Part shown: one piece after another, positions 1-35,462 of the stretch
Layout: each line of letters starts with the position of its first letter
Position numbering within the stretch: position 1 is the first letter of the stretch
NCBI GenBank assembly: GCA_036507075.1
Contig: DASXQR010000123.1
Location: forward strand, 1-36,128
Length of the DNA: 36,128 bases
Reading direction: 5' to 3'
Origin: Acidobacteriota bacterium
GTDB lineage: Bacteria; Acidobacteriota; UBA6911; JACQSX01
Program-made: the position numbers and the translations under genes
Notes under the pieces: model-generated
The model's database searches: none
The model's input: the letters and a program-made list of their open reading frames with translations, nothing else
What the model was told of the DNA's origin: nothing

Positions 1-110
1 ACCACGTCAACGTCCACGCCTACGCTAATGATGAAGATCCGAACACGATCAAAACAACCCGTGGACTTACCTGGTGGACGTTGACGTGGTCGTGCACGTG
101 GACCTAGACG
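1..110. repeat. Inverted-repeat element built from a CACGTC/GACGTG-like hexamer (left arm probably truncated by the window edge)
   Basis: 1-17 ACCACGTCAACGTCCAC is the exact reverse complement of 74-90 GTGGACGTTGACGTGGT; degenerate hexamers continue to about 110. Confidence 0.75.
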
Positions 111-123
111 GCTTTTGTGCAGT

Positions 124-2607
124 TTACTTCGCCGCGGTTTGTTTGCCCGGCTTGATTACCAGTTCTACCGGCTCGGCGGCCGCTTCGTCACGCAGCGGAG
201 AATTGACTTCCACACGGCCCGTGATCACCAGCGGGAGTTTCATTGGTTGCACCCACGGTTCCGCGACGATGTGGAAAGTGCGGCTGGTTTCCTGCTCGGT
301 GATCAAAATCGCGTTCAGTCCTATGTCATTGACTCGCACGCCATGCGGCAAGTTCATCACCGAGATCGGTACCCGTCCCGTGAATCCGTTGTTGCGCTGA
401 ATTGTTACTGTGACAGAAACCGACGCGCCGGGAGTGAGCTCGAGCGCTGGTGTCAGGGCCTTTACCATCAGGTCCGGCGCGGGCGCCAGCGCAACTACAC
501 TGATCGGTTCGCCGACCTGGGCGTCATGGATCACTTCCTTGCCGTCGATCACCGCGCGCGCGGCCAGTTTGAGGTTCACCAGTCCGGGAAGCTCCATGCT
601 CGCCCGCGGCGTGCCCGGGCGGCGCGCACCGGGCCCGGGAGCAGAAAGGTACATGGACTTGATGGATGCCGAATAATTATTGAGATTGATATCTTCTGCG
701 GCGGTCAGTACCAGCGTGGTTGTATCCTCTCCCTCGGGAATCGTGCCTCGAGTCGCCGTCAAGCCCCGCGGCAGGTCCTGCAGTTCGACTTGAATTGGAC
801 CCTGGAAGCCGTCCTTTCTGAGGGCGGTCACCGTGAGAGAAACACGCCCGCCGCGCGGGATGTTAAAAGACTTCGGATCAAAGGTAACCTCGTAATCGGG
901 GGCCGGCTCGCGCACGGTGAGGCGATAGGCATAACGGTCCCCCTCGAGATTCCTCACATCGCGCAGTCGCACCAGATAGTCGCCTTTTTCCGGCGCGATG
1001 AAATGCAGCAGCGAATCCTTGCCGCCGAACATTACGCCGCCGTCATCATTTTCATAGTTGATCTGAAACAGCGGCATTCCGTTGGGGGGAAATTTTGTGC
1101 CTGCCGGATGAACCTCAACCTTGTACACAGGCGTGCCCACGGCGTGGTTCCGCGGCGTGGTATCCAACATCCCGATGCGCGATCCGCGAAATCCCTTGAA
1201 AACCATGTCTGCGTCGGGATGCGTGGGCATTTCGTCGACCTGCAGGATTTCTTCGCCGATCATCACGTAGTCATTGATGGCCAGGTCATTCCAACTCGCC
1301 AGGCGGATCCCCTTGCGCGCGGAATCCGGGTCGTTGAGCGCCAGATTTGTCTGTGCCACGCACCTCAGCGTGGCGCGGGGCACCGGCGCGCCGTTCGCGT
1401 CCAGGATCTCCAGAATTGAATCCAGAGGCGATCCAAGCTGCTGCGCAGTCACCTCGAATACCAGCTCCTGTCCTTTGCGGGCATGAATGCGGTAGAGATC
1501 CCGGTCAGCAGAATGATCGCCGCCGGGGCTGGTTCCGGAGGTCACCGATTGAATCCTTCCATTGACGGTGCTGGGGATGGCAAGCGGCTGCGCAGTAGCG
1601 GGTCGATCATTGGGTTCGTTTTCAAAAACTTCAACATAATCGCCCAGCGCCAGACGCGCTCGATTCAGTGTGGGACCGCCAGGAGTGTGTAGGGAAACCG
1701 GAACGGTCTTCGCCGGCGGTGTCAATCCTTCGCCAATCACCTTGATCTTCTCGATCTTGCCCAGATTGAAGCCCTGCACGGAAATCTCAGCGCTGGTTTT
1801 CTTCTGCAGCCCCAGAGGAAAAACCTGGGCCAGATAAGGAAAGGCGCCCGCATAAATACGGTAGAAGAAGTTTTTCCCACCTCCATGCTCGACGTCCTCA
1901 ATCTCCAGAGTGTAAGTTCCCGAGTTGGAAAACTTGTACGCAAGCAGCGCATCGCGATTGGTGTCAACGTCGTTGTTCTCCGCCAGCACCCGTCCCTGCG
2001 AGTCCTTCAAACGAAGAACCGTGTCGGCTTGCGAGTTCAAAGGCCGGGCCAGTGTTTGAAATACCAATTCTTCTCCCGGCCGGGCCTGGAACTGAAAGGA
2101 GTCGACGTCCCCTGGTTCGTCGAGAGTGCCGACAATAGTCGCAGGAAAGGAGATCTTTTGAGGGCTGGAGGATGCCGGTTCTGTTTCATTTATTTCGGTG
2201 AACGAACCTGTGCCGAAGGGCAACAGATTGGAAACACCCAGCGCGGTACGAACGCGAAAGAAGTGAACTCCTACCGGGACATCCGGGTCGATTTTCACCC
2301 GCACAGTAACGCGAAATTTTCGCGCCTTGTCTTCAATCGGAGCCGAAGTTACAACCACGCCTTTTGGCGCCTTTCTTTTCACCATCGGCAACTCTTTGAT
2401 GCCGGCGATCTCGGTTGAAAAACCGGGTTCGCTGAAAATCAGCCCCGTGGCTCCGTCAATATTGGTCCCTTCGATCTCGAGGGTAATTTGAGTGCCGCGC
2501 TGCGCGCCGGTCGGCTTAACCGTTTGCAGCGTCGGCGGCGCGGTCTGCGCGCAGAGCCACGACAAATCCAACAGCAGAAGAGAAAGGAACATGGATGCTC
2601 TTCGCAT
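124..2607 (-). CDS. Secreted pre-peptidase C-terminal (PPC)/Ig-like repeat protein, Planctomycete type
   Basis: Start moved to ATG 2607 (AAGGAG RBS at 2615-2620, signal peptide MRRASMFLSLLLL). PPC-type motifs: GDVDSFQFQARPGE, ENEPND, DRDLYRIHARKGQ, DSLLHFIAPEKGDYLVRLRD. Confidence 0.8.
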   Translation of the reverse strand: MRRASMFLSLLLLDLSWLCAQTAPPTLQTVKPTGAQRGTQITLEIEGTNIDGATGLIFSEPGFSTEIAGIKELPMVKRKAPKGVVVTSAPIEDKARKFRVTVRVKIDPDVPVGVHFFRVRTALGVSNLLPFGTGSFTEINETEPASSSPQKISFPATIVGTLDEPGDVDSFQFQARPGEELVFQTLARPLNSQADTVLRLKDSQGRVLAENNDVDTNRDALLAYKFSNSGTYTLEIEDVEHGGGKNFFYRIYAGAFPYLAQVFPLGLQKKTSAEISVQGFNLGKIEKIKVIGEGLTPPAKTVPVSLHTPGGPTLNRARLALGDYVEVFENEPNDRPATAQPLAIPSTVNGRIQSVTSGTSPGGDHSADRDLYRIHARKGQELVFEVTAQQLGSPLDSILEILDANGAPVPRATLRCVAQTNLALNDPDSARKGIRLASWNDLAINDYVMIGEEILQVDEMPTHPDADMVFKGFRGSRIGMLDTTPRNHAVGTPVYKVEVHPAGTKFPPNGMPLFQINYENDDGGVMFGGKDSLLHFIAPEKGDYLVRLRDVRNLEGDRYAYRLTVREPAPDYEVTFDPKSFNIPRGGRVSLTVTALRKDGFQGPIQVELQDLPRGLTATRGTIPEGEDTTTLVLTAAEDINLNNYSASIKSMYLSAPGPGARRPGTPRASMELPGLVNLKLAARAVIDGKEVIHDAQVGEPISVVALAPAPDLMVKALTPALELTPGASVSVTVTIQRNNGFTGRVPISVMNLPHGVRVNDIGLNAILITEQETSRTFHIVAEPWVQPMKLPLVITGRVEVNSPLRDEAAAEPVELVIKPGKQTAAK

Positions 2608-2616
2608 TTTTGAACT

Positions 2617-2776
2617 CCTTAGTGGTGCCTTGGTGCCTTTGTGAACGTGGAGAGACGGCCTGAGGGCCGTCTCAGGGAATGTCCCGGGATTGCCCTGCTG
2701 TCGACCTCGCCTGAGACGGCCATCGGGCCGTCTCTCCATGTAAAAACTCCAGCGACGCGGCCTGCCGCGTCGCTAC
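2617..2776. repeat. Composite: one 8-mer array arm, an inverted REP-like doublet and a GTAG-type REP-like hairpin
   Basis: CCTTAGTGGTGCCTTGGTGCCTTTGTG (2617-2643); GTGGAGAGACGGCCTGAGGGCCGTCTC with an inverted copy GAGACGGCCATCGGGCCGTCTCTCCA; minus-strand GTAG-CGACGCGGC-AG-GCCGCGTCG at 2751-2776. Confidence 0.7.
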
Positions 2777-2788
2777 GGCTGGGAATGT

Positions 2789-4288
2789 TCATGGCACCGT
2801 GAGATTCTGCGCTGCTTTGTGTCCGGCCAGGTCGTAAATTCCCACCGTCCCATCGTACCTTCCTGCAGCCAGCCACTTTCCATCGGGAGCAATCGCCAGT
2901 CCTAACGCCCAGTCGGGCTGAATCTCGAGTGCCTGCGTTTCACGCAACGTTTCCGGATCCCAAATCTTCACCAGGCGGTCAGCCCCGGTGGAAGCGAGCA
3001 TTTTTCCATCTTTGGAAAAAGCCAGCTTAAGAACCGAATCACCATGCGCAAAAGTGGATCGCAGCAGCGTCGCCCCCGGAGCTCCGCCTGGGCCGCCGCT
3101 TTCCGACCAGCTCCAGATGCGAATGAGCTTGTCGGCTCCCGCAGCCGCGATCATCCGGCCTGAGGGATGAACAGCGACCGTGTAGACAGCATCCAGCGGC
3201 TCGCTCATTGTGACCAGTCGGAGACCGGACTGCACATTCCAGATTTTCACGGTGCGATCTCCGCCCGCGGAAACAAGAACCTTCCCGTCGGGCAGGAACG
3301 CAATTGAATAGACGGCATCCACGTGCTCTTTTAATGTTTTTGTCTCCCTGCCCGTGGTGACGTCCCACAGCTTGATCAGGTGATCGTAACTGGCGCTGGC
3401 CAGCGTCTTTCCATCCGGCGAAAAGCTCAGCGAATAAATGGCGTCGGTATGCCCGCGCATCGTTGAAACGACCTTTGCCTGTTCGACATCCCAGATCTTG
3501 ATTTCTCCGAAACGTGCCGCTGATCCTCCGCCGGCCGCAAGAAATCTTCCGTCCGGAGAAAAGACCACCGCCCGCACCAGATCAACATGTCCCGGGAAAC
3601 TTTGCAGCCACCTGCCCGTGTTTACATCCAGCAGATGGACTGTTTTATAACTGCCGATGGCCACTCGCTCCGCCTTCGAATCGAATGCCACATCGGCAAC
3701 GGAAGCGAGCACCGGAATGGCCGGCTTGATCGAAGGAACGGACAATTCATCACTGCCTGCGGCTAAGAGCTCGCCCGGTCTGGGACCGGAAGCGCCCGCG
3801 TCAATCCAGCGGCGCACGATCGCGATTTCGGCCGGATCCAATGGCTCGCCTTTGTTCGGCATCCGCGGTTCCAGCTTTCCCTCCATCATCAGAACCATGC
3901 GGCTGGAATCGCTCTTTCCCGGGACAAATGCGGGTCCGTGCTCTCCGCCTGCGGCCAGATCTTCGTATGTTTCCATGATCAGGCCTCCCTGCGTCTTGGT
4001 GGAGTTGTGGCAGGAGATGCATTTTTGCTGGAGAAGAGTTCTAACCTGAGAGAACGGAACACCGGGTGTTGTTACTTTTCGGTCACCGGCAGGCTGAACC
4101 GGGGGAGCGCTGGGTGACGTTATGTTAGTCGGAGTCGCAGGAGCAGGCGCTCGAGCGACGGCCATTTTTTTAGTCGCGCAACCAGTCAAGAGAATCAGCA
4201 GGCTGGCCTGTATCGTAGCCAACCGGATGAAAGACCGGTACCGATGCCAAAATGTCTCAGTCCACGCACTCAGTCCAAAGAAGATCAT
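2789..4288 (-). CDS. Putative lipoprotein with a Planctomycete cytochrome c (PSCyt1-like) domain and a WD40 beta-propeller
   Basis: Lipobox LLILLTGC; heme motif CISCH followed by GGL...PGKSDSS...RMP...RWIDAGA; about seven GH...FSPDG...WD repeats. Confidence 0.85.
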   Translation of the reverse strand: MIFFGLSAWTETFWHRYRSFIRLATIQASLLILLTGCATKKMAVARAPAPATPTNITSPSAPPVQPAGDRKVTTPGVPFSQVRTLLQQKCISCHNSTKTQGGLIMETYEDLAAGGEHGPAFVPGKSDSSRMVLMMEGKLEPRMPNKGEPLDPAEIAIVRRWIDAGASGPRPGELLAAGSDELSVPSIKPAIPVLASVADVAFDSKAERVAIGSYKTVHLLDVNTGRWLQSFPGHVDLVRAVVFSPDGRFLAAGGGSAARFGEIKIWDVEQAKVVSTMRGHTDAIYSLSFSPDGKTLASASYDHLIKLWDVTTGRETKTLKEHVDAVYSIAFLPDGKVLVSAGGDRTVKIWNVQSGLRLVTMSEPLDAVYTVAVHPSGRMIAAAGADKLIRIWSWSESGGPGGAPGATLLRSTFAHGDSVLKLAFSKDGKMLASTGADRLVKIWDPETLRETQALEIQPDWALGLAIAPDGKWLAAGRYDGTVGIYDLAGHKAAQNLTVP

Positions 4289-4317
4289 TCGTATTCAAGA
4301 CCTCGTGAATCCGCTGG

Positions 4318-4363
4318 CTTGGTGTCTTGGTGGTCAAAAAAATTGAACCACCAAGACACCAAG
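4318..4363. repeat. Perfect 17-bp hairpin made of CACCAAGA 8-mers
   Basis: CTTGGTGTCTTGGTGGT (4318-4334) / ACCACCAAGACACCAAG (4347-4363). Confidence 0.85.
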
Positions 4364-4432
4364 TCAACTGACTAATCTTGGCAGACGGCCCAAAGTCGCT
4401 GCAGGCCTGTGTACTTCGCACTGATGGTCGCC

Positions 4433-7072
4433 TTAGTGATTAAACAGGAATTCCTTGCCCGTGAGCACCGCCCACATTAAATCTTCCAGCACCTGGCGGC
4501 GCGCCAGCGACTCCGGCTTCTCATCCGTCCTGGGAGCCGCGTGCTTCGAAGCAACGGCCGGTTTCTTCACCGATGCAGCGATGCTCTCCTCCTCTTCGGA
4601 GACCGCTTCGGACTTCTCCTTAGTGTCGGCTTCCGCCATATACCCGCTGGCCGATCCGCTGCCCGGAGTCTTGCGAGCGCCGAGCATTTCCAATAACTGT
4701 TTGTAGTTCCGATCCAAGGCCTCGCTTAAGGCCTGAACCTCGCCGGTCGTGGCACGGCGGCTGAGCGAGCGCAGATAGACCTGTTCGATTGCAGCTCGAT
4801 TATCCGGGTTCGAATCCATCAACTTTTGAACGAAGCCCTCTCGGGAACGGAGCTTCCGGTTGATGGTATCGCCGTTGATCACGTGCAGTGCCTGCGTCAC
4901 AGTCGGCTCCTGCTGGCGCTCCGAGTCCACTGCGACAATACGCGGCGGGCGCCCGAATATATCCAGGAAGTAAGATTCCACCTGCGTGTCCGGCAACTGC
5001 AGCGCGCGCCTGCCCGGCGGGTGACCTTTGAATTTCTCCGGTACGCCGGCAGCCTGGCTGAGAGCGTCCAGGATCACTTCGGCCGGAAGGCGCCTGGCGA
5101 TGTAGTGCGAATAATATTTAAGGTCGCCTTTGTTGGTGTTGTTGGGAACCGAAGTCAACTGGTACGTGCTGGAGTTCATGATGGTGCGGATCAGGTGCTT
5201 CAGCTCGAAGTTGTGATCGATGAAGTCCCGCGTGAGTTTTTCCAGAAGCTCAGCGTGAGTGGGGGGATTGGTGTCGCGGATGTCGTCGACGGCTTCCACC
5301 AGCCCGCGGCCCATAAAGTTCTTCCAGATCCGGTTGACCATGGCGCGCCCGAAGAAGGGATTCTCGGAGGATGTGAGCCAGAGAGCGAAATGTTCGCGCC
5401 GGTCGACAGCAGAATCAATCTTTAGAGCCGGACCTTCCAGCGGCCGCGGCGCCAGCGGTTCGTTCAAGCGCGGATGATTGATGTCGCCCGCGTCAGAGGA
5501 GTACACGATTACGTCTCCGCGTCCCGCTCCGTTCTTGAGAGCCACGCGGGAAAAAAGATTGGCCATCTGGTAGTAATCTTTCTGCGTCCATTTCTCCAGT
5601 GGATGATTGTGGCAGCGCGCGCAGGTGATGGAAAACCCCATGAAGGCGATCGACATGTTTTCCGTGATGTCGATCGGGTCTTTGTGCAGCACGTAGTAAT
5701 TGGCGGCCCCGTTGCTCAGCGTGTTACCGGAAGCGGTAATCAGCTCGCGCGCCATTTTCGAAAGCGGTTTGTTTTCCGCCACACCGGAGCGGACCCAATT
5801 GTAGTAAGACCACATCGCGTTACTGGGGAGTTTCTGGCTGTTGACCAGGAACATGTCCGACAACCGGTACGACCAGTAGTCGACATACTCGGGACGTTCC
5901 AGCAGGGAGTCGATCAGGCGGGTGCGCTTTTCGGCCGCATTGTCGGCCAGAAAGCGCTGCACTTCTTCCGCGGTGGGCAGAATGCCGGCCGCGTCCAGAT
6001 ATGCCCGGCGGATAAATTCCGAATCGGAGGCAAGCCGGGAAGGTTCAATCGCCAGTTCCTGCAGCTTTTGAATTATCAGATCGTCGATGTAATTGGAACG
6101 GGGCGCGCTTTGATAGGCTTCCGCGGAAATTGTATTGGCGAATGGAGAAAATACGCGCGCAGCCGACACGCGGCTCAGATACCAAACCGAAACAGCGGCT
6201 TCGCCCGCTCCCTGAAGTTTGACTATGCCCTTGTCATCCACGACGGCGACGTTTTCATCGCTGCTGAAGAATTTTGTCCAGCGCGTGACATCTTCGACGT
6301 GGCCGTCCGAAAAGGATGCCCTCACCAGGATTTGCTGCGGCTGACCCGCGAAAAGGCGAACTTGTTTTGGAAAAACCTCCAACCTCGTGATCGCAGGATC
6401 GGTATCCGAAGGGGCCGGCATTCCAGAAGCAATCCACTTTGAAATGGTCTTGTAATCATCCGAGCCGGGAGCAAACCGCATTCCTCCGGCATGAGAAACG
6501 GCCAATGTGGGTTTGAGCAGCATCAGGCTCATGGCCGGTTCTATTTTGTTGATGCGGCGTGCCGAAGCCTGCCTTGACAGCGTAAGGTAATCCACCTCGG
6601 GATCATAACCACGCAGGGTGAGCCGGAATCCGTTCTTTCCGGAAGCGGCCCCGTGACAGGCTCCCGAATTGCATCCCGCCTTGGTCATCACAGGCAGCAC
6701 GTGGTTGCGGAAGGAGATCGGATAAGGGGCGAAGCTCTGCTCGACGGTAATGACGGTGCTTGTCAGCTGGTCGCCGATCTTCGCCGAGATGATGGAACGG
6801 CCATCGGAAACAGCGGTGACAAGACCTCTCTCGTTGACCTTTGCAACCACCGGATTGGAGGAACTGAAAGCGGCGCGCGCCGTCAGGTCGCCGTTGAACA
6901 CGCCACCCGCGCGGGATTCCAGCAACAACTGCTGCGTGGCTCCCGCTCCGCGGAGCATGATTTCGGAGGGGAGCAGTTCAATAGTCTGCGGCGCGGAGTA
7001 AGTGGCGTGCGAAAGAAGTTGGAATGCACCGAGCAACAAGACCGGAATTAGAACTAGTGCGCGTTTCTTCAT
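4433..7072 (-). CDS. DUF1549/DUF1553 (PSD1/PSCyt2-type) protein with Ig-like (Big_2) domains
   Basis: Signal peptide from ATG 7072 (TTG 7093 is an alternative start). Motifs GCNSGACHG, SDSEFIRRAYLD, CARCHNHP, NRIWKNFMGRGLVE, RRLPAEVILD and C-terminal EFLFNH. Confidence 0.88.
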   Translation of the reverse strand: MKKRALVLIPVLLLGAFQLLSHATYSAPQTIELLPSEIMLRGAGATQQLLLESRAGGVFNGDLTARAAFSSSNPVVAKVNERGLVTAVSDGRSIISAKIGDQLTSTVITVEQSFAPYPISFRNHVLPVMTKAGCNSGACHGAASGKNGFRLTLRGYDPEVDYLTLSRQASARRINKIEPAMSLMLLKPTLAVSHAGGMRFAPGSDDYKTISKWIASGMPAPSDTDPAITRLEVFPKQVRLFAGQPQQILVRASFSDGHVEDVTRWTKFFSSDENVAVVDDKGIVKLQGAGEAAVSVWYLSRVSAARVFSPFANTISAEAYQSAPRSNYIDDLIIQKLQELAIEPSRLASDSEFIRRAYLDAAGILPTAEEVQRFLADNAAEKRTRLIDSLLERPEYVDYWSYRLSDMFLVNSQKLPSNAMWSYYNWVRSGVAENKPLSKMARELITASGNTLSNGAANYYVLHKDPIDITENMSIAFMGFSITCARCHNHPLEKWTQKDYYQMANLFSRVALKNGAGRGDVIVYSSDAGDINHPRLNEPLAPRPLEGPALKIDSAVDRREHFALWLTSSENPFFGRAMVNRIWKNFMGRGLVEAVDDIRDTNPPTHAELLEKLTRDFIDHNFELKHLIRTIMNSSTYQLTSVPNNTNKGDLKYYSHYIARRLPAEVILDALSQAAGVPEKFKGHPPGRRALQLPDTQVESYFLDIFGRPPRIVAVDSERQQEPTVTQALHVINGDTINRKLRSREGFVQKLMDSNPDNRAAIEQVYLRSLSRRATTGEVQALSEALDRNYKQLLEMLGARKTPGSGSASGYMAEADTKEKSEAVSEEEESIAASVKKPAVASKHAAPRTDEKPESLARRQVLEDLMWAVLTGKEFLFNH

Positions 7073-7092
7073 ATCAGATTGCAAAGTGCGCA

Positions 7093-7150
7093 ATCACCAC
7101 AATGACGCGTTTGGTTGCGGCCTGCGGCCGGGCTGTGCCTTTGTGGTGAT
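7093..7150. repeat. Small inverted-repeat element with an internal GGTTGCGGC...GCCG hairpin
   Basis: ATCACCACAA (7093-7102) / TTGTGGTGAT (7141-7150); the internal motif recurs at 32687-32722. Confidence 0.65.
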
Positions 7151-7164
7151 AAATCTTCTATCCG

Positions 7165-8538
7165 TCAGAATAGTTCCTTAATGGGCTGCGTGCCGTAATC
7201 AACAATAGGGACCGGACGATTCTGCGCCCCTGGCAGTTCCGTCTCCAGATCGATGCCCAGCGCTCGGAAAACAGTCGCCGCCACCTGTGCCGGTGATGTC
7301 GGCCGGTCCTTGGGATAACCGCCGATTTCGTCCGAGGATCCAATTACCTGGCCCCCCTTGATCCCACCGCCGGCCATCAGAATGGTCCAGCAGTTCGGCC
7401 AGTGGTCGCGGCCGCCGGCGGGATTGATCTTGGGAGTGCGTCCGAATTCACCCATGGCGAGCACCAGAGTATTATCCAGCAGGCCGCGCGCGGCCAGATC
7501 CTCCAACAGGGAACTGTATGCATTGTCAAACATCGGTCCCACCAGGTCGCGATAGCAACTGATCGGGCTGAAAGGCGCCGAGCCGTGAATGTCCCAGGTA
7601 ATTTCGTTGAACACGGTCTCGAACATGTTGACGGTGACGAAGCGGACGCCGCGTTCGATCATGCGGCGCGCCAGCAGACAGCTCTGGCCGAAGCGATTCC
7701 GGCCGTAGCGAGCGCGCGTTTGATCGTCTTCCTTGGTGATATCGAATGCTTCGCGGGCGCTCTGAGAAGAGATCAAGCGATACGCCTGCTCGAAATTGCT
7801 GTCCAGAAGGCGCGCATCGGGCGTAGATTCCAGGTACGAAACGCTCTTGTCGACCAGTGTGCGCAGCGAGGCGCGGCCATCGACGCGAATGGGAGGAAGA
7901 TAATCGGGCGGCAGCAGATCGGGAACCTTGAAATCCGGTTCCGACGGGTCCGAGTTCAAGACAAACGGATCGTACGTCTTTCCCAGAAATCCGGCGGTTT
8001 GGCCGTGAGGCAGATTCCCGCCGGTATTGCCGATGGGGCGAGGCAGCAGCACATGCGGGGGCGCGTCGCCCTTGGGTCCCTTCAGCTTGCTGAGAACACA
8101 GCCGATGTGCGGATGCTCGGTCCCGGCCTGGAAAAACCGGCCTGTCTGCATCATCTGATGGCCGACATCATGCACACCCGCGCCATTGTGGTAAACGGAT
8201 CGAATGAGCGAAAACTTGTCGGCGTGCCGCGCGCTTCGAGGGAAGATTTCGCTGATCTGGATGCCTGCCACGTTTGTGGCAATAGCTTTGTAAGGACCCC
8301 GGATCTCGGCAGGCGCATCCGGCTTCATGTCGAAAGTGTCCAGATGGCTCGGTCCGCCGACCAGAAACAGCATGATGCAGTTTACGTCTTTGTTCTTGTC
8401 TACCGCTCCCAGTGCCTTCCACTGGAGAAAATCGCCGATGGTCAAACCAAAGAAAGCGAGAGCTCCCGCATGCAGGAAGTCGCGGCGTCTCAGCCCGTCG
8501 CAGAAATTGACGCCTTTTTCAGCATCCAGTTGAATCAT
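7165..8538 (-). CDS. DUF1501 domain protein (Tat-type signal)
   Basis: RRDFL twin-arginine motif; GGPSHLDTFD, WDIH, GEFGRTP and GRDHW family motifs. Confidence 0.9.
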   Translation of the reverse strand: MIQLDAEKGVNFCDGLRRRDFLHAGALAFFGLTIGDFLQWKALGAVDKNKDVNCIMLFLVGGPSHLDTFDMKPDAPAEIRGPYKAIATNVAGIQISEIFPRSARHADKFSLIRSVYHNGAGVHDVGHQMMQTGRFFQAGTEHPHIGCVLSKLKGPKGDAPPHVLLPRPIGNTGGNLPHGQTAGFLGKTYDPFVLNSDPSEPDFKVPDLLPPDYLPPIRVDGRASLRTLVDKSVSYLESTPDARLLDSNFEQAYRLISSQSAREAFDITKEDDQTRARYGRNRFGQSCLLARRMIERGVRFVTVNMFETVFNEITWDIHGSAPFSPISCYRDLVGPMFDNAYSSLLEDLAARGLLDNTLVLAMGEFGRTPKINPAGGRDHWPNCWTILMAGGGIKGGQVIGSSDEIGGYPKDRPTSPAQVAATVFRALGIDLETELPGAQNRPVPIVDYGTQPIKELF

Positions 8539-8596
8539 GGGAAGGTCACCTCAACGCTTAAAAGTTTCAGTGCGCGGATCTCAAATTTCAGTGTAG

Positions 8597-8724
8597 TTCA
8601 CGAATTTCACGAATTCCACGAATTTCACGAATTTTCACGAAGTTAAGGCGAACGAAGCACCAACGAGTGATCCGACAAAATGCTTCAAAATTCGTGAAAT
8701 TCGTGAAATTCGTGTAAATTCGTG
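8597..8724. repeat. Palindromic array element, CACGAATTT family (copy 1)
   Basis: Five CACGAA(TTT)-type units at 8597-8641, a unique spacer, then four AATTCGTG units at 8688-8724. Confidence 0.9.
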
Positions 8725-8874
8725 GCCAACCCCCCACCCCAAATATTTGGATACAATTCAATATTTTGGTTAGAGTGGCGGGCGTTTCCCACCCGAACCG
8801 AACGTAAATATCTATTTTCCATGAGGTTTCCAACTGTCCGGTTTTGGAAAAAAAATTGCTTAAGGTTGTTTCAG

Positions 8875-23858: not shown

Positions 23859-23863
23859 GCTTT

Positions 23864-26114: not shown

Positions 26115-26115
26115 T

Positions 26116-26248: not shown

Positions 26249-26254
26249 TCTGGC

Positions 26255-26641: not shown

Positions 26642-26651
26642 CTCCCCATCC

Positions 26652-27995: not shown

Positions 27996-28004
27996 AACTG
28001 TCAG

Positions 28005-28166
28005 AACTTTTCACCACAAAGGCACAAAGGCACGAAGCAAGACGTGGGGCAGGCAGAGGCCGGTCAGCTCCAAAAGCCCTTGCCGCGTTTACCTTTGGAC
28101 AGCTGACCGGCCTCTGCCTGCCCCACGTCTTCCCTTCGTGTCCTTAGTGTCTTTGTGGTGAAAGTT
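28005..28166. repeat. Nested palindrome: CACAAAGG 8-mer arms enclosing a perfect 31-bp inverted repeat
   Basis: Outer arms 28005-28037 / 28134-28166; inner arms 28039-28069 / 28101-28131 are exact reverse complements. Confidence 0.9.
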
Positions 28167-28193
28167 TCACACACGAACTTTTGCAAGTAAGTA

Positions 28194-29213
28194 CTAGTCA
28201 GCGCTAAAACCGTGCTGGCGGCGATGATGAGGCCCATCGAAAGTCTGGGTCGACTTGAACAGCTCGTGCCGCCCATCGGCGGCCTGCGGACGTACGCGTT
28301 CGAGCAAGGCGGCTCGTTCCTGTTTTTCCATCGGCCTAAAATCCTGAACAATCCCCAGGTCCTGCTGCAGGTCTTCCATCGACTGAATCCCTACAACCAG
28401 CGACGTAATGGGCAGGCTGAGCGCATAGCGAATGCAGTCCTGAGCGGAAACCCCTGCCTTTTCCGGTATCTGGCCTTTGGGATAGCCCCCGCCAAGGCTT
28501 TTCATCCCCAGCACGGAGATATTTCGTTTCGTGCAAACAGGAAGCACCTCGTTCTGGAAACTTCGGTAATGTGCGTCCATGACGTTAATCGGCATTTGTG
28601 CCGTGTCCCAGTCAAAGGACTTGCTAAGCATCTTCAGGTGGATGCGCGGATCCTTGTGCCCGGTAAAGCCAATGTAACGCACCTTTCCCGCTTTTCTGGC
28701 TTCTATCGCCGCTTTGATTCCGCCTTTATCGAACACCCAATCCGGGTCATTGTCGTAGACCATCTCGTGGAACTGCCACAGATCGAGATGGTCGGTGCGA
28801 AGCCGCCGGAGGCTTTCCTCCAGATTCCGCATCGACCCCTGGTAGTCCCGTTCGCAGTTTTTGGTCATCAGGAAGACTTTTTTGCGATGGTCATCCATGG
28901 AAAGAGCCCGCCCCATTACTTCCTCGCTCCCTCCGTTGTGATAATCCCAGGCATTATCGAAGAAAGTGAGGCCATGGTCTATGGCGGCATGCATAATTCG
29001 CATGGCCTCCTGAGTGTCTTTGACGGCGCCGATATGCCAGCCGCCGAGGGTAAGAATGGATACCTTCTCGCCCGTTTTCCCCAGCGACCGCGTCGGCACG
29101 CCGGCAGCGCTCTTTGCTCTCAAGGATACCCCTCCGTGGCTGAAACTCGCGCCGGCTACGATTCCCAATGATGTTCGTACAAAATCGCGTCGAGTGGTTT
29201 CAAAGTGCGGCAT
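28194..29213 (-). CDS. Aldo/keto reductase with Tat signal
   Basis: AGGAGG RBS before ATG 29213; TRRDFV; FFDNAWDY, LMTK, SLRRLRTDHLDLWQFH, GKVRYIGFTGH. Confidence 0.9.
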   Translation of the reverse strand: MPHFETTRRDFVRTSLGIVAGASFSHGGVSLRAKSAAGVPTRSLGKTGEKVSILTLGGWHIGAVKDTQEAMRIMHAAIDHGLTFFDNAWDYHNGGSEEVMGRALSMDDHRKKVFLMTKNCERDYQGSMRNLEESLRRLRTDHLDLWQFHEMVYDNDPDWVFDKGGIKAAIEARKAGKVRYIGFTGHKDPRIHLKMLSKSFDWDTAQMPINVMDAHYRSFQNEVLPVCTKRNISVLGMKSLGGGYPKGQIPEKAGVSAQDCIRYALSLPITSLVVGIQSMEDLQQDLGIVQDFRPMEKQERAALLERVRPQAADGRHELFKSTQTFDGPHHRRQHGFSAD

Positions 29214-29479
29214 GGCGCCTCCTGTGAATTTGTGGCAACCAACAGTTTTTGGTTCGGACGCCGGCACAGCCATGCTGCGCCAAGGAGTTTGGACATTTCG
29301 CAGCGGAGCCCGGGACGTTTTCACAACGTCAGAACGCGAACGAAGTGGGCGACGCAGGACTGCGTCCGGCGCTACAACTCTTCGTACCGTCAATTCAGCC
29401 TACGGCCAGAGCGGCGGAAAGAAAAGGAAAAAAAGCAGGCTATGAAGCCGGATTGGGGCCGGGGTGGGTCGGGGAGGTT

Positions 29480-29507
29480 CGACTTTTTCCGTTCTTTTTG
29501 AGTCAAA
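29480..29507 (+). promoter_or_regulatory. Possible ECF-sigma (sigmaE-like) promoter
   Basis: CGACTT-N16-GTCAAA, 35 nt upstream of the sigma factor ATG. Confidence 0.3.
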
Positions 29508-29542
29508 TAGGACAGCACAGGAAAGATTCTGAGCCGGAGTCG

Positions 29543-30205
29543 ATGGAAGAAGCCTTGAATTCAACGCTTTCGACGGAGAGCCACGCAGAGTCCAGGCCGG
29601 CAGACAGCGTCCAGGAAGTCGCCTGGATCAGAGCCTCGCAGCAGGGGGATACTCTCGCTTTCAACCGGCTTGTCCTCAGGTGGGAAAAGTCCATCTATAA
29701 CCTGACGCTGAGGATGCTTCAGGATCCGGAGGATGCTGCCGAAGTTACTCAGGAAGTTTTTCTGTCGGCTTATCGAAATGTCCGGCGCTTCCGGCATGAG
29801 GCCAGGTTTTCCACCTGGCTCTACCGTATCGCGGCCAATCATTGCATAACCAGGCTGCGACAGCGTCCTCAGGGGGTCCACTGTTCCATCGATGATGATC
29901 ATTCTGTGATTCCAATCGAGCAAGCTCTTCCCGCACAGCGTTCACACGAAAGCGAATTCCTGCGCGAGGAAATCCGCAACCAGGTGCGCGGGGCGCTGCG
30001 ACAGTTGAATCCTGATCAAAGGATAGTGGTGGAACTGAAGTTCTTTCAGGAACTCACATTTAATGACATTGCGGCGATTTTGCAGCTCCCGGTCAGCACG
30101 ATTAAGTCGAGACTTTACTCCGGTTTCGAAGTACTAAAAGGGCGACTGGGAAACGCCGCGAAACACTCTGTCAATATGACCGCGAACACTTCGGAGGCAA
30201 AATGA
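29543..30205 (+). CDS. ECF-type sigma-70 factor
   Basis: GGAG RBS before ATG 29543; DAAEVTQEVF, FSTWLYRIAAN (region 2); IAAILQLPVSTIKSRL (region 4). Confidence 0.9.
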   Translation: MEEALNSTLSTESHAESRPADSVQEVAWIRASQQGDTLAFNRLVLRWEKSIYNLTLRMLQDPEDAAEVTQEVFLSAYRNVRRFRHEARFSTWLYRIAANHCITRLRQRPQGVHCSIDDDHSVIPIEQALPAQRSHESEFLREEIRNQVRGALRQLNPDQRIVVELKFFQELTFNDIAAILQLPVSTIKSRLYSGFEVLKGRLGNAAKHSVNMTANTSEAK

Positions 30206-30996
30206 ATGGTTGTGACGAATTTCGAAATCAGATCATCGAGGCTGCCCTGGGAGAAATCGGCTCCGCAGAGCAGGGGGCCCTGGAATCGCACCTGAAGGAT
30301 TGCGCGGTCTGTCGTCGGGAACAGGATCGCGTCGTCGAGGTGGTTAGGGAGCTGCGCGCGGCCACAGATTTTCCGGTCCCGCGGCACTTTTTCGTGCACC
30401 CAGACGATAGTCCTTACACGGTCCGGGATATCTTTCGGGCGCTCACACCAGCCTGGAAACTGGGCTTGGCCGCGGCAACAGTGGTTGTCGCGCTTCTGGT
30501 GGTGTTCACGGCGGCAAGTTTCCATGCCCGCATCGAGAAGGGTGTCTACGTCTTCAGCTTCGGCACGCCAATCGATCCGGTCCCAGGCCGCTCAGAACCG
30601 TCCGTGGACGTCGGCCGGTTAAAACCGGATTTGCTGCGAACGTTGGAGGAAAAATCCCGGCGGGAACGCCTGCAGTGGATTCAAGCGATGAGAGAAGAGA
30701 TGGATCGATCCGCATCGACATTGTCGCGGCGGCAGCGGGCGGAGCTGGAAAGGACTTTGGCAAGTCTGGAGCGCCGCGTCGATGAGCGCGTATTTACCGC
30801 AGGCCTGGCCCTGCAGGCGCGCTCGGATAAGGCTCTCTCCGACATGTACAACTCGATGCAGGCGCAGCGACAGCGCGATGTGCTGCTCACACAGGAGAGT
30901 CTTGAACGCTGGAAAGCGAAAGATGAAATCAAGGCCAGCCAGACCGATGCCATCCTGCAAACGCTGCTGCAGGTGGCCGAGGTCCGCTTGAAATAA
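30202..30996 (+). CDS. Zinc-binding (zf-HC2) transmembrane anti-sigma factor
   Basis: HLKDCAVC motif, one TM helix, coiled-coil C-terminus, ATGA overlap with the sigma gene. Confidence 0.85.
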   Translation: MNGCDEFRNQIIEAALGEIGSAEQGALESHLKDCAVCRREQDRVVEVVRELRAATDFPVPRHFFVHPDDSPYTVRDIFRALTPAWKLGLAAATVVVALLVVFTAASFHARIEKGVYVFSFGTPIDPVPGRSEPSVDVGRLKPDLLRTLEEKSRRERLQWIQAMREEMDRSASTLSRRQRAELERTLASLERRVDERVFTAGLALQARSDKALSDMYNSMQAQRQRDVLLTQESLERWKAKDEIKASQTDAILQTLLQVAEVRLK

Positions 30997-31094
30997 AGAC
31001 CCATGGCCAGAAATAACTTATTGTTTTTTCGACAAGATTTCAGAAGACATCCAATCGAGCTTTCGAGCTGCGGTCTATTTAGAGGGAGAAAAAG

Positions 31095-31943
31095 ATGAAA
31101 AGATATCTAATGGCGCTTCTGCTGGCAATGTTGGCTCTGTTGCCTGCCGGGAATGTCTTGAATGCCCAGTCCGAGCTTTTCGACCAGAAGAAGTTGCGGC
31201 AGGAACTGGAAATTATGGAAGGCATCTTGCAGACCACTTTGCAGTTTGGGCTGAAAGAGTTTCGGCTTAAGGATCAGGCGGCGAAAAAAGAAGAACAGGT
31301 CTTCAGGAGGTCGTATGATTTTCCGGGTGAAATAGGAAGGCTTTCCAATATCACCGCTCTCTACCTTTATGGCCAGGGTGCTGTCTTCCTTATTCCTGTG
31401 GCGGGTCTCCAGGGGCATAACGACTTTTACGGAGTGCTTGCCCCGGGGCACAAAGATATCGATCTTTACCTCCGCAGCTCGATTAAGCCGGCCTCTCCAG
31501 CGCCCGGATCACCTCGGACCTCGATATCGCCGGCACCTCCGGCGGCTGGGAGTGGAGTCGAAAAATCCGCAAAGAGGGTGACCGAGGGAAACGAGGAGGA
31601 CCTGCGCAAACGCCTCGGCGAGGCTCAGGAGCTCATTAAGAAGCGCACGGAAGATGAAGCCGTGCTGCGAGCAAAGCTGGATGAACTGCTCGGTAAAATA
31701 AAAGGCTCGCTGATCGAGGCGCTCGCCAATTACGGAGACTCTCTGACGCTGGTAAAACCCAACGAATACATTACGATTGTCTTCACCAGTGAGACGCCGG
31801 GCCGCTTCAAACTGCTGCTGGCGGATGAGGTGGGACATCCACAGGAAGTCATCTCAGTCCAGAAATCTGTCATTACCGATTACAAGGCCGGTAAGCTGCC
31901 GCTGGAGAGCTTCAGGCAAAAGGTTTTGAATTACAAGAATTGA
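31095..31943 (+). CDS. Secreted hypothetical protein
   Basis: GAGGGAG RBS; signal peptide; co-oriented with the ECF pair. Confidence 0.75.
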   Translation: MKRYLMALLLAMLALLPAGNVLNAQSELFDQKKLRQELEIMEGILQTTLQFGLKEFRLKDQAAKKEEQVFRRSYDFPGEIGRLSNITALYLYGQGAVFLIPVAGLQGHNDFYGVLAPGHKDIDLYLRSSIKPASPAPGSPRTSISPAPPAAGSGVEKSAKRVTEGNEEDLRKRLGEAQELIKKRTEDEAVLRAKLDELLGKIKGSLIEALANYGDSLTLVKPNEYITIVFTSETPGRFKLLLADEVGHPQEVISVQKSVITDYKAGKLPLESFRQKVLNYKN

Positions 31944-31945
31944 GT

Positions 31946-32052
31946 TTCACTGCTAAGAAAGCGGAAACTGCGAAGGCGCGAAAGCGCGAAAAAATGGTTC
32001 TGGTTGCCTGCGAAGGCTGGAGCACTTTTCGTTTTCGCGCCTTCGCGGTGAA
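31946..32052. repeat. Degenerate palindromic 8-mer element (CGCGAARG) between convergent genes
   Basis: GCGAAGGCGCGAAAGCGCGAAAA ... TTTTCGCGCCTTCGCGGTGAA. Confidence 0.7.
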
Positions 32053-32063
32053 TTTTGCGAGAA

Positions 32064-32456
32064 TTACTTCAGGATCTCGGCCGCACGTGTGAGATCAGAG
32101 ACCGAGAGGATCATCAGCGCGCGATCTGAATTTTTTTCTATGCTGCCGTAAGCGTACCGCAAGTCGATTCCCTTTTCAGCGAGTTTTCTGGTGATTCGTC
32201 CCAGCGCTCCGGGGCGGTCCTTTAGATGGACAGCCAGAACTTGTTCCTCGGTATAACCAATCCTGAGAGAATCGAGTACTTTCTTCGCAGTATCCAGGTT
32301 GTTGACGATGATATGAAGCGGCGCCTCGCCGCGCGGGGTTTTCGAAATCATGATAGCCGAGATGTTGACCGCTACCTTTGCCAACTCGGTACAAATCTCG
32401 GCCAGAGCTCCCGGCTTGTCGTCCACCTTGACGGAAAGCTGCTTTACGATCGCCAT
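32064..32456 (-). CDS. Tandem ACT domain protein
   Basis: QLSVKVDDKPGALAEI and DRPGALGRI ACT motifs. Confidence 0.88.
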   Translation of the reverse strand: MAIVKQLSVKVDDKPGALAEICTELAKVAVNISAIMISKTPRGEAPLHIIVNNLDTAKKVLDSLRIGYTEEQVLAVHLKDRPGALGRITRKLAEKGIDLRYAYGSIEKNSDRALMILSVSDLTRAAEILK

Positions 32457-32470
32457 AGTTGGGCAGGAAT

Positions 32471-32722
32471 TTCCACGAATTTACACGAATTTCACGAAGT
32501 TATCTAAAAGATTCGTGTAATTCGTATAATGCGTCTGACTTTGTGCGCTTTGTACTACTAACCATGAACTACTAACCATGAGAATTTTCGCGGCCTGCGC
32601 AAATTTATTCGGGAGCGGACAGACGGCCTGAGGGCCGTCTCAGCTTGGCAGGACACCGCAGAGAGACGGCCGTCTCTCCTTGACTTTTGGTTGCGGCTTC
32701 GCCGCGCTAAGCCTTTGTGGTG
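32471..32722. repeat. Cluster: CACGAATT element (copy 4), 14-bp direct duplication, GAGACGGCC REP-like pair and GGTTGCGGC motif
   Basis: 32471-32525; ACTACTAACCATGA x2 at 32554-32581; AGACGGCCTGAGGGCCGTCTCAG at 32621-32643 identical to the copy near 2654; 32687-32722 resembles 7111-7148. Confidence 0.8.
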
Positions 32723-32775
32723 CAAATATTCTTGGTCGAATTTGTGGAATTAAATGCCAGGCGAGAACACTTATC

Positions 32776-34356
32776 ATGAAAAAACACCAGAACTTTTTGA
32801 CAGCACAGGCAATCGTTTTTGTGGCCGCGCATTGTCTGATGGCCCAGAGCCGCCCGGCGATTGATGCTCTGAAGACGGAAGCCTCAGCCGCGGTGGATGG
32901 AATGAAGGATCTGACCCAGCGAATGGTCGATCAAATCTTCAGCTTCAGTGAGTTGGGATTTCAGGAATTTGAAACATCGCGCTACGTGACCGGCATTCTG
33001 GAAGAAAACGGTTTCAAAGTGGAACGTGGAATCGCCGGAATCCCCACTGCGTGGATGGCGACTTATGGTTCCGGGAAACCGGTGATTGCCTTTATCAGCG
33101 ACATCGACGGCATTCCCCAGGCGTCTCAGAAGCCCGGCGTTGCCTATCATGATCCTCTTGTTCCGGGAGCGCCGGGCCACGGGGAAGGGCACAATTCGGG
33201 ACAGGCGGTAAATGTCACCGCTGCCATTGTCCTTAAGAACCTGATGGACAAATATCGGATCTCCGGAACTCTCCGGTTATTCCCGGGCGTGGCCGAAGAG
33301 CAGCTCGGCACCAAGGCCTTTTTGATTCGGGCGGGCCTGTTCAAGGACGTCGACATTGTTTTGGGGTCTCATGTGGACAACAGCTTCGGCACCAATTACG
33401 GCATGCCGTCGAACAACAGCGGCCTGGTTTCCGTGCAATACACATTCTCCGGACGCTCGGCGCATGCGGCAGGGGCGCCATGGCAGGGACGCAGCGCGCT
33501 GGACGCCGTGGAGCTGATGAATGCAGGCTGGAATTACCGGCGTGAACACCTGCGACTGCAGCACCGATCGCACTACGTGATTGTCAACGGCGGCGACCAG
33601 CCCAACGTAGTTCCGCCGGAAGCGACCGTCTGGTACTTCTTCCGGGAACTGGACTATGCGCGCATCAAGGAGCTCTTTGAGCTGGGAAACAGGATGGCGC
33701 AGGCTGCGACGATGATGACCGACACGACGGTGACGCATCGGATTGTGGGATCAGCCTGGCCGAATCACTTCAATAAGGTTGTCGCCGAAGCGCAGCATAA
33801 GAACATCGAGGCTGTCGGCATGCCACAGTGGAGTGAAGCCGATCAGACGCTGGCCCGTTCTCTGCAAAAGGAAATCGAAGCCAAAACGGACGGTTTGAAA
33901 ACGTCAGTGGAGAAGCTGGTAGCGCCCAAGGAACCTTCAGGCGGAGGCTCCGACGACATTGGCGACGTTTCGTGGAATGTTCCCACGGTATACCTTCGCT
34001 ACCCGGCAAACATTCCAAACCTGCCGGGACATAACTGGGCCAATGCAGTAGCGATGGCCACGCCGATCGCTCACAAAGGGTCGACGGCCGGCGCCAAGGT
34101 TCAAGCTCTAACGGCGCTCGACTTTCTGATGAATGATGAGCTGGTAAAGGAGAGCTGGAATTATTTTCGCAGCGTGCAGACTAAAGATGTGAAATACATC
34201 CCGCTGATCGAATCAACCGATCGCCCGGCGATTGAGCTGAATAAGGAAAAAATGGAAAGACACCTTCCGGAGCTCAAGAAGCACTACTTTGATCCCGGCC
34301 GTTACAAAACATACCTGGAGCAACTGGGAATCTCATATCCGACCGTGCGGCAGTAG
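32776..34356 (+). CDS. M20-family amidohydrolase, AbgB-like, with probable signal peptide
   Basis: ELGFQEFETS, GHGEGHN, AEE, GRSAHAAGAPWQGRSALDAVELMN, GGDQPNVVP, GSDDIGDVSW. Confidence 0.85.
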   Translation: MKKHQNFLTAQAIVFVAAHCLMAQSRPAIDALKTEASAAVDGMKDLTQRMVDQIFSFSELGFQEFETSRYVTGILEENGFKVERGIAGIPTAWMATYGSGKPVIAFISDIDGIPQASQKPGVAYHDPLVPGAPGHGEGHNSGQAVNVTAAIVLKNLMDKYRISGTLRLFPGVAEEQLGTKAFLIRAGLFKDVDIVLGSHVDNSFGTNYGMPSNNSGLVSVQYTFSGRSAHAAGAPWQGRSALDAVELMNAGWNYRREHLRLQHRSHYVIVNGGDQPNVVPPEATVWYFFRELDYARIKELFELGNRMAQAATMMTDTTVTHRIVGSAWPNHFNKVVAEAQHKNIEAVGMPQWSEADQTLARSLQKEIEAKTDGLKTSVEKLVAPKEPSGGGSDDIGDVSWNVPTVYLRYPANIPNLPGHNWANAVAMATPIAHKGSTAGAKVQALTALDFLMNDELVKESWNYFRSVQTKDVKYIPLIESTDRPAIELNKEKMERHLPELKKHYFDPGRYKTYLEQLGISYPTVRQ

Positions 34357-34394
34357 AAGGGGGATGAACCCTTCCCTCCCTTCCTAACCCTTCC

Positions 34395-35102
34395 TCACGC
34401 TCCCTCGCTCCCCGGGGCTGCGTTTATCTTCGCGATCTTCTCCAGGTGGCGTATATCGCGCCCTTCCACCATGAAGATCACCATTTCAGCGATGTTGGAG
34501 GAGTGATCTCCCAGTCGTTCCAGGTATTTGGCGACAAACATCAGGTGAGAGGCGCATAAGATGTCGGCCGGATGTTCGGCCATGTACGACAAAAGATCAC
34601 GGAACAGCTTTTGATTCAGCATGTCAACGTAATCGTCCGCATACAGCACCTTCTGCGCCAACTCCACATCCTGATTAACAAAGGCATCCAGAGCATCCTT
34701 CAGCATCTTCTGCGCAGCTTCGGCCATGAGGGGGTAGTCCGGCAGCAGTTTCATTTCCGGCCCGCAGCTCAACTCCAGGGCGCGCTCCGCGATATCAACC
34801 GCCAGATCTCCGACGCGTTCCAGGTCCTTGACGATTTTCAGGCTGGTAGCGATAAAGCGGAGGTCGCGCGCCACGGGCTGGCGCAGGGCCAGCAGTTCCA
34901 GGCTGGCGTTGTCAATTTCGATTTCCAGTTTGTCCACGTGGGGATCGCCGGCGATCACCTCGTTGGCCAGCGAAGCATCTTTCTGCACCAGGGCGCGAAT
35001 GCTGAGTGAAATCGCGCGCTCCACCATTGTCGCCATGCGCAAGATGGACTGTTTTAAAGCATCCAACTGTTCGTCAAAATGCTTGCTTAAGTGGTCTGTC
35101 AT
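34395..35102 (-). CDS. phoU: Phosphate signalling protein PhoU
   Basis: Start moved to ATG 35102 (the upstream extension is repeat-derived); LRQPVARDLR, DLERVGD, LERLGDH; downstream of pstB. Confidence 0.95.
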   Translation of the reverse strand: MTDHLSKHFDEQLDALKQSILRMATMVERAISLSIRALVQKDASLANEVIAGDPHVDKLEIEIDNASLELLALRQPVARDLRFIATSLKIVKDLERVGDLAVDIAERALELSCGPEMKLLPDYPLMAEAAQKMLKDALDAFVNQDVELAQKVLYADDYVDMLNQKLFRDLLSYMAEHPADILCASHLMFVAKYLERLGDHSSNIAEMVIFMVEGRDIRHLEKIAKINAAPGSEGA

Positions 35103-35132
35103 CGGTGTTCCTATTCTTGCCGGGTTAGGAGT

Positions 35133-35462
35133 CGCGGGTTTCCGGGTTCCGGGTTTCGGGTTACGGGTTCCGGGTTCCGAGTTTTCGGGTTTCGAGTTTT
35201 CGGGTTGCGGGTTCTCGAGTTGCGGGTTCCGGGTTCCGAGTTTCACGTTCCGGGTGCCGAGCTTCGGGTTCCGGGTTCCGAGCTTCGGGTTCCGCAACCC
35301 AACAACTCAACAAACCGAAAACCCACAACCCGAAAACCGGGAACCCGAAAACCCGCAACCCGAAACCCCGAAACCCGAAAACCCGAAAACCCGAAAACCC
35401 GAAATCCGAAATCCGCGAGGCGACAACCCGCAACCCGAAAACCCGTAACCCGACAACCCGCG
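35133..35462. repeat. Palindromic 7/8-mer array element (CGGGTTC)n / (GAAACCC)n inside the pstB-phoU gap
   Basis: Left array about 35133-35293, complementary array about 35294-35462. Confidence 0.9.

Follow-up and report, generated by a model that had tools for sequence, protein, structure and literature searches.

Paired microsatellite arms in the intergenic gaps of an acidobacterial genome as probable emptied copies of hairpin-armed gene cassettes

The window analysed here is contig DASXQR010000123.1 of an Acidobacteriota bacterium, read over its whole length of 36,128 nucleotides (contig C123 of the source genome, G000; 6.1 Mb in 233 contigs). It encodes ordinary proteins, and most of its longer intergenic gaps contain repeats, in the majority two inverted arms built of tandem 6-10-mers. 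We hold with considerable confidence that these window elements are empties of cassettes in which arms of the same kind enclose a gene for a four-helix-bundle protein (TIGR02436) or a GxxExxY protein. The wider interpretation, that repeat-armed gaps are emptied copies of hairpin-armed cassettes which spread as folded single-stranded DNA (ssDNA) in connection with competence, is the one we favour as reasonably probable, the ssDNA route being held with less confidence than the descent from cassettes. Four observations underlie this interpretation: the same arm units, in the same polarity, surround the cargo genes; identical deletion joins recur; the occupancy of gaps turns over between relatives; and cassette genes, RAYT genes (defined below) and host competence genes have an upstream motif in common.

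The gaps of the window were counted by hand on gene ends. Tandem Repeats Finder (TRF), an inverted-repeat search and direct reading located repeats in 17 of the 21 gaps of at least 90 bp, in agreement with a preliminary description of this DNA (17 of about 21). That description regarded nearly all of them as palindromic and most as having a unit repeated in one arm and its reverse complement in the other. This architecture holds for 13 of the 17, whose inverted arms are built of 6-10-mers, either tandem or degenerate (1-106, 4312-4372, 7096-7152, 8590-8728, 15760-16042, 17808-17948, 19506-19771, 23622-23863, 26650-26832, 28006-28170, 31944-32058, 32464-32530 and 35118-35464), whereas three gaps (2645-2745, 12655-12890 and 14138-14266) contain long REPIN-like palindromes (REP, repetitive extragenic palindrome) of the type associated with RAYTs (REP-associated tyrosine transposases), with no microsatellite arms, and one (26116-26251) contains a lone, non-palindromic (TCTAACC)19 array. 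The element at 4312-4372 also corrects the described design, as it faces outward. A strict automatic detector, which takes one pair per gap, requires exact 6-mers and lacks the contig-start gap in its window list, called 9 of 21 listed gaps. Folding z-scores lay between −2.7 and −16 in 16 of 19 window elements; those of 7096-7152, of 34355-34398 and of the solitary (TCTAACC)19 array did not reach significance.

Genome-wide, using our own gene calls (4608 genes, with start calls that run somewhat downstream), the strict detector returned 860 inverted-arm elements, 823 of them in the 2950 gaps of at least 90 bp, and it found them in tandem (504 of 1756), convergent (174 of 526) and divergent gaps (145 of 668). 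Shuffled gaps gave none and coding controls 0.07%; the inverted-arm elements are not due to chance. Their outer ends were at a median distance of 20 bp from stop codons and 72 bp from start codons, and several window elements begin exactly at a stop codon. TRF yielded 2650 merged arrays, 953 of them of period 7. Among adjacent arrays less than 200 bp apart, 441 of 870 pairs were inverted and 12 direct, against about 2% of each orientation in random pairs, again far beyond chance.

In one rival explanation, microsatellites arise independently by slippage, are turned into inverted pairs by template switching and persist because regulators bind them or because they form quadruplexes, an idea put forward for Geobacter, Xanthomonas and Beggiatoa. 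Paired tandem 7/8-mer intergenic sites are described in Geobacter metallireducens (PMC2700814), GGGAATC pairs in Xanthomonas (PMC4692102) and TAACTGA arrays in Beggiatoaceae (PMC4679880); like the present elements these are intergenic heptamers or octamers near gene ends, often as inverted pairs in the first two. They have been interpreted as regulator-binding, quadruplex or translational sites, but the passages considered here, in contrast to the present case, mention neither a cargo gene nor a series of deletions nor any connection with competence. The free variation in copy number fits such an origin, as do lone arrays (26116-26251) and the fact that the arms of one element are the most alike: sharing of 10-mers was 0.44 between the arms of one element and 0.28 between family mates (n=385), which suggests homogenisation within an element and counts for our own interpretation as well, in a comparison partly biased towards this result by the detector's demand for shared 6-mers. 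The units are not site-specific, as had been thought, and instead sort into about 18 genome-wide families (the CACGAATT family has 119 elements in the genome, four of them in the window). Most families have a single polarity (CGGAATG 161:0, CACGAATT 119:0, CGGGTT 94:0), while elements of the CACAAAG, CACCAAG and CACGTC types are found in either orientation, inward or outward. As both polarities would be expected of microsatellites born independently, fixed polarity counts against independent births. The ends of the elements are conserved, both inside each family and from phylum to phylum. In addition, identical deletion joins occur at many loci and families are replaced at orthologous gaps, as described below. 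Fixed polarity and the recurrent joins largely refute the microsatellite explanation, which we consider very improbable.

Both protein families that the preliminary description named as often flanked by such arrays proved to be cargo in this genome, between arms of the same unit. There are 7 four-helix-bundle loci (from 8 TIGR02436 matches) and 6 GxxExxY loci, besides 12 matches to Y1 transposases. By eye, repeat arms surround nearly all of the 13 four-helix and GxxExxY loci, several of which are broken, and these loci, like the window elements, all lie between protein genes. The relatives G001-G005 contributed 36 further cargo loci, with the same design among the roughly 30 viewed, and named isolate genomes also have this cassette architecture; none of the present claims depends on the unpublished genomes G015 and G052. 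Arm units and polarity around the cargo genes match those of the empty elements: of the window units, CACGTC, GTCCGTT, CGGGTT, AGGCAG/CGGAARG and AAAGTCG are shared with four-helix genes, and CACAAAG, CACCAAG and CGCGAAG with GxxExxY genes. In a tree of 29 four-helix proteins the arm unit follows the subclade (the CACGTC, GTCATTG, AAAGTC and AGTTGCC groups had starred support, the AGGCAG group 93/94); this correspondence points to co-descent and not to recognition, since kin share labels. The four-helix protein belongs to PF05635, matches PDB 2gsc and has a bAvd match in one of three tested. GxxExxY corresponds to PF13366 and has invariant D and ExK residues; with its structure model (predicted local distance difference test score, pLDDT, 94) Foldseek found Cas4 and Holliday-junction resolvases at E values of 0.016 or worse, and a sequence search of the PDB with GxxExxY returned nothing meaningful. 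Across phyla, in a set of the 80 GTDB loci that most closely resemble one GxxExxY protein (chiefly from Bacteroidota and Ignavibacteria, a few from Chloroflexota, Verrucomicrobia and other groups), the ACCRC terminus pointed inward on both sides at 46 and outward at 6, with 5 of 73 in far-upstream controls.

The passage from filled to empty can be followed in the CACGTC family, where a full cassette on contig C37 aligns with derivatives in which the left arm and the upstream motif are fused to the last codons of the cargo gene. One deletion join is identical at 9 loci (9 of 11 pattern matches, the other 2 being judged chance), and two further joins recur in the same way, at 4 and at 3 loci, with outer flanks that differ. 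Identical joins between different flanks imply that the derivatives were very likely copied after gene loss, and likely as units. C82 derives in a similar manner from the C231 cassette. ORFs (open reading frames) between matching arms 200-2600 bp apart, which the preliminary description had proposed to list, were mostly host genes between neighbouring elements, and the true cargo among them was limited to two broken four-helix genes. As a separate observation, four filled cassettes (L182 at G003:C384, L252, L258 and L277) stand in tandem with their own deleted copies.

Occupancy also differs between relatives. The pstB|phoU gap holds different families in G000, G002 and G003 and no element in G001 or G005, and of the 7 window gaps with an element that could be compared in G001-G005, 6 are seen by eye to be empty there or to contain a different family; a CTTGGTG-type arm in the PPC|WD40 gap is common to the window and G001. 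In G001 and G003 the dprA|topA gap contains a broken GxxExxY cassette, which G000 lacks. At 71-83% PhoU identity the relatives are too distant to define element junctions, so the alignment of orthologous gaps suggested earlier revealed that gaps differ but did not yield junctions. Cargo between the same arms, deletion intermediates and differing orthologous gaps together support the earlier proposal that these are non-autonomous, empty members of a system whose gene lies elsewhere.

The preliminary description missed that the cargo genes share a motif with host competence genes. This bipartite motif, TTTCGCAGATTT ... CAGTTATGT, with 18 bases between TCGC and GTT, lies upstream of cargo and RAYT genes. 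A matrix trained on 18 cassette and RAYT sites, with no host gene among them, gave 63 genome matches of at least 20 bits, and the reversed genome gave 0. Among the four-helix loci 6 of 7 have the motif upstream, among the GxxExxY loci 5 of 6 and among the tested Y1 loci 10 of 11, and when the matrix was built from four-helix and GxxExxY sites alone, 7 RAYT sites found by regular expression scored 31-46 bits. Behind 44 non-seed matches of at least 21 bits, 30 downstream ORFs were scanned; 13 of them correspond to comEA, comEC, comF, comM/YifB, dprA, recA, ssb, radC, recG, recQ, pcrA, an ERCC4 nuclease and a pilin, 2 are RAYT-like, and most others have no family. Many motif-preceded ORFs start 2-5 bases past the motif, a spacing that leaderless transcripts would fit.

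In G001-G005 the motif is present at 21 of the 36 cargo loci (at least 18 bits). Upstream of dprA it reached 18 bits in none of 29 other genomes of the phylum, so that the exact G000 motif appears to be lineage-restricted. In G013, which belongs to a second family, dprA, comEA, comM, ssb, pilT and a four-helix cassette have upstream of them a motif unlike that of G000, TCAACTTT ... GTGCGTTA (10 matches, 1 control match), and a variant form precedes a GxxExxY cassette; the host motif there differs, and the cassettes carry the host's version. Cassette and dprA motifs clearly agreed in 4 of 9 genomes (G000, G001, G013 and G021). The AAC...CGTT form of the G013 motif suggests a sigma factor of the extracytoplasmic function (ECF) type, and the motif is predicted to be a promoter for such an alternative sigma factor.

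Several other G000 loci bear the motif of that genome. At G000:C17:70859-72967 an ECF-like sigma gene is followed by an anti-sigma/TPR gene with the competence motif just upstream, and an XRE gene and a second, divergent motif are nearby, making this locus a candidate for the regulator of the regulon. Two copies of a family-less coiled-coil ORF of 112-119 aa, each behind the motif and beside GxxExxY-type arms (G000:C28:575-2407), are possibly a further cargo class. The CACGTC left arm and motif of a deleted cassette stand before a DUF7674 gene at G000:C57:18379-18807, a possible case of promoter capture. ORFs without a Pfam or NCBIfam family behind strong motif matches (G000:C97:18644-19267, C48:57222-58103 and C83:143915-144415) are candidate new competence genes. 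In G046, the four-helix cassettes L330 and L333 (G046:C2:491905-493840) lie, by eye, between lexA-, dinB- and dnaE2-like genes.

A route by which such cassettes might spread can be proposed. The motif, as an ECF-type promoter, would turn cassette genes on together with the DNA-uptake genes. During uptake, the arms of the ssDNA could fold back in any register and so bring the flanks together, and cargo proteins made in trans would bind or cut the hairpins, GxxExxY as a nuclease and the four-helix protein as a binder. Host recombination (RecA, DprA, ComM) would then insert the elements, for the most part immediately after stop codons, which are positions that tolerate them, while slippage would expand the arms and fold-back copying would keep both arms of one element alike. 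A bolder version is that these are a widespread form of transposase-free selfish DNA, in which one-gene microsatellite-hairpin cassettes on the host competence promoter insert themselves and their empties from transforming ssDNA, the inserting protein being a minimal PD-(D/E)XK nuclease or an Avd-like four-helix protein; we put this forward tentatively, as somewhat short of probable.

Several findings weigh against the favoured interpretation. No mobilising enzyme was found for the elements; a PD-(D/E)XK nuclease does not ligate, and the four-helix protein is not known to have a catalytic role. The Foldseek E values given above belong with these points. A flanking target-site duplication of at least 12 bp was present at 0 of 860 elements, and duplications of at least 10 bp at 8 elements and 6 swapped controls, in a test of lengths of 10 bp and more, so that duplications of 2-9 bp may exist. 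The deletion series is limited to one family and one single case, and the cargo link of the CACGAATT family is one GxxExxY locus only, where whole hairpins flank the gene. Comparison of window spacers with cargo interiors gave no clear cargo remnant, the matches being mostly nested arms; the spacer of 1-106 resembles the cargo's last codons, which is suggestive only. No window element has a motif match of at least 18 bits, and since the window elements are without the motif and their spacers mostly without a cargo match, their descent from cassettes is read from arm identity and polarity. Agreement of the cassette motif with the dprA motif was weak in G010 and G046 and not visible in G006, G012 and G094, and in other phyla many cassettes lack a motif and lie immediately after the stop codon of a host gene. 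Some cassettes that lack a motif stand directly behind dprA, comEA or comM, or in a lexA-dinB-dnaE2-like operon (neighbours judged by eye). Host competence is itself a prediction. As an observation apart, four GxxExxY cassettes, L356 (G095), L360 (G026), L361 (G086) and L367 (G069), have direct host-flank duplications of 30-70 bp, unlike the G000 empties, and these may record the insertion route.

The main alternative for a strand-joining enzyme is the co-regulated RAYTs. It is conceivable, and in our view unlikely, that the cassettes are passengers or domesticated guards which, like Ssn, cut incoming hairpin-bearing ssDNA and so tune recombination, and that the empties are spread by another enzyme, likeliest RAYTs acting in trans. 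RAYT genes do carry the same motif as the cassettes, SsnA is reported to cut hairpin-bearing ssDNA and to lower transformation (PMC11893778), and in Escherichia coli induction of yafM accompanies competence (as cited in PMC5581495). However, next to the RAYT genes of this genome stand long REP-like palindromes of their own and not unit arms, and the arm units track the four-helix subclades. Microsatellite-arm repeats were not found beside an HUH Y1 gene; this position was occupied only by the GAGACGGCC class, beside decayed RAYT genes, and true RAYT/REPIN-like repeats coexist here as a separate class.

Comparison with known systems leads to partial likenesses. REP/REPIN elements and their RAYTs (TnpA-REP) are described as hundreds of intergenic inverted hairpin doublets, in several families per genome (PMC3116915, PMC5581495, PMC6006769), and share with the present elements the dispersed doublets, the few gene-bearing copies and, through yafM, a link to competence induction; but the arms here are tandem 6-10-mers of variable copy number with no conserved REP, and in place of an HUH transposase they enclose a gene for a four-helix or PD-(D/E)XK protein. 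REPs have a conserved GTAG/GGAG tetranucleotide foot; here the terminal logos of five ACCRC-type families have TTCACC/GAACC ends, not GT[AG]G, other families having been viewed as samples only. The Ssn/NTS/SRM system (PMC11893778) also combines a small hairpin-flanked nuclease gene with many gene-less copies, and its nucleases act on ssDNA during transformation, an action for which the cassettes would offer a parallel. As described there, Ssn is a GIY-YIG protein with single-hairpin repeats of 20-50 nt, whereas here PF13366 or PF05635 cargo lies between split arms. Transposable elements of the miniature inverted-repeat kind (MITEs) resemble the series with identical joins at 9, 4 and 3 loci in being internal-deletion derivatives that are copied in trans; unlike classical MITEs, which have a target-site duplication and a cognate DDE transposase, the present elements have no long target-site duplication and the cargo is not a transposase. 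The intervening sequences (IVSs) of 23S rRNA, as in Coxiella (PMC4990558), have a PF05635 gene (the S23p ORF) inside stem-forming inverted repeats, a design that among the present elements only the filled copies share, whereas the present elements lie between protein genes and not in rRNA, with microsatellite arms, a competence-type motif of their own and hundreds of empties. The system differs in a defining feature from each of REPIN/RAYT, Ssn/NTS and rRNA IVSs. In the open-access literature, so far as it was available to us, neither the cassettes nor the motif was found described, and only empty paired arrays were, as regulatory sites.

The likeness to the rRNA IVSs raises the idea of action at the RNA level, in which RNase III would excise the elements, or the elements would stabilise or terminate transcripts, and spread would proceed through an Avd-like protein and a reverse transcriptase. 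We judge this improbable. The PF05635 cargo with its bAvd match would suit it, as would the position of the elements against stop codons (a median of 20 bp, compared with 72 bp from starts), and in tandem gaps the sense strand folds slightly better (232 vs 197 of 466, p=0.02). Yet G.U and A.C mismatches showed no strand bias on the transcribed strand (295 vs 281, p=0.41), 145 of the 668 divergent gaps also hold elements, and the two reverse transcriptase matches of the genome are a group II intron-like ORF (G000:C146:65986-66615), which stands back to back with a motif match and points away from it, and a fragment.

That the elements are assembly artefacts has a negligible probability in our view. 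The assembly is fragmented and 96 of 466 contig ends carry an array, but the element at 31944-32058 is identical in Logan assemblies made independently for two studies, of which one may have used the source sample, and relatives and named isolates have the same architecture. Among sequencing-run contigs compared with 26300-34390 no credible empty allele was found; joints at elements were short-sided and came from other copies. The sequencing runs listed as containing this DNA included none of RNA. Rfam gave no match in 1-19000 or 20000-36128 of the window.

Along the window, the CACGTC-family element at 1-106 has its left end cut by the contig start (DNA fold z −2.8), and its arms belong to the four-helix-bundle cassette family in which the deletion series was seen. 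At 2623-2745 a lone right arm of CACCAAG/CACAAAG type accompanies the GAGACGGCC REPIN-like palindrome, which has 138 genomic loci and also flanks decayed RAYT genes. The outward-facing CTTGGTG...CACCAAG hairpin (4312-4372) resembles the 3′ end of a GxxExxY cassette on C37 and has 145 near-full-length copies in the genome, and the short CACAAAG-type element at 7096-7152, built around a GGTTGCGGC repeat, is a weak folder. CACGAATT-family elements are found at 8590-8728 (in a divergent DUF1501/TonB-receptor gap), 17808-17948 and 26650-26832. A REPIN-like CAGTACCGCG palindrome occurs at 14138-14266 and, with a 24-mer tandem array, at 12655-12890, the latter not being a microsatellite-arm element. 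The element at 15760-16042 is nested, an inner pair of GTCCGTT arms lying within outer AAAGTCG arms, which overlap the 3′ end of an MFS (major facilitator superfamily) gene and abut an esterase stop; the left AAAGTCG arm (15760-15789) provides the final codons of the MFS gene. An AGGCAG-family element (19506-19771) starts at a stop codon and has the arms of a four-helix-bundle subclade, and a CGGAARG element (23622-23863) runs from stop to stop between convergent genes.

The lone (TCTAACC)19 array at 26116-26251 is near-perfect and has no partner arm; its unit is also found in G003, where it forms part of a four-helix cassette's right arm. GxxExxY-type arms characterise both the CACAAAG element at 28006-28170, with TTCACCAC termini and a long perfect inner palindrome, and the CGCGAAG element at 31944-32058 (as at L177 of G003). 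The stack at 32464-32725 is made up of a short CACGAATT element, a 14-mer duplication, a GAGACGGCC REPIN-like palindrome, a GGTTGCGGC repeat and a CACAAAG right arm. A small GAAGGG-type arm pair (34355-34416), a weak folder, lies between convergent stops in a gap of less than 90 bp, and a CGGGTT element (35118-35464) lies inside the pstB-phoU operon. The repeat GCCGCAACCAAA, at 7115-7140 and 32690-32710, has 147 genomic copies against 2 in the control and often joins CACAAAG-type and CACGTC arms.

If the favoured interpretation is true, the four-helix bundle TIGR02436, GxxExxY and the paired intergenic 7-9-mer arrays of bacteria would share one cause; two orphan protein families that are very common would thereby gain a function, and the abundance of such arrays would be explained. 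The common motif points to competence as the condition, and the arms are a candidate substrate for each protein, with the recurrent deletion joins supplying minimal non-autonomous elements for assay. An ssDNA nuclease that recognises a microsatellite hairpin could serve as a tool, and for a soil lineage that is uncultured the motif gives the outline of a predicted competence regulon.

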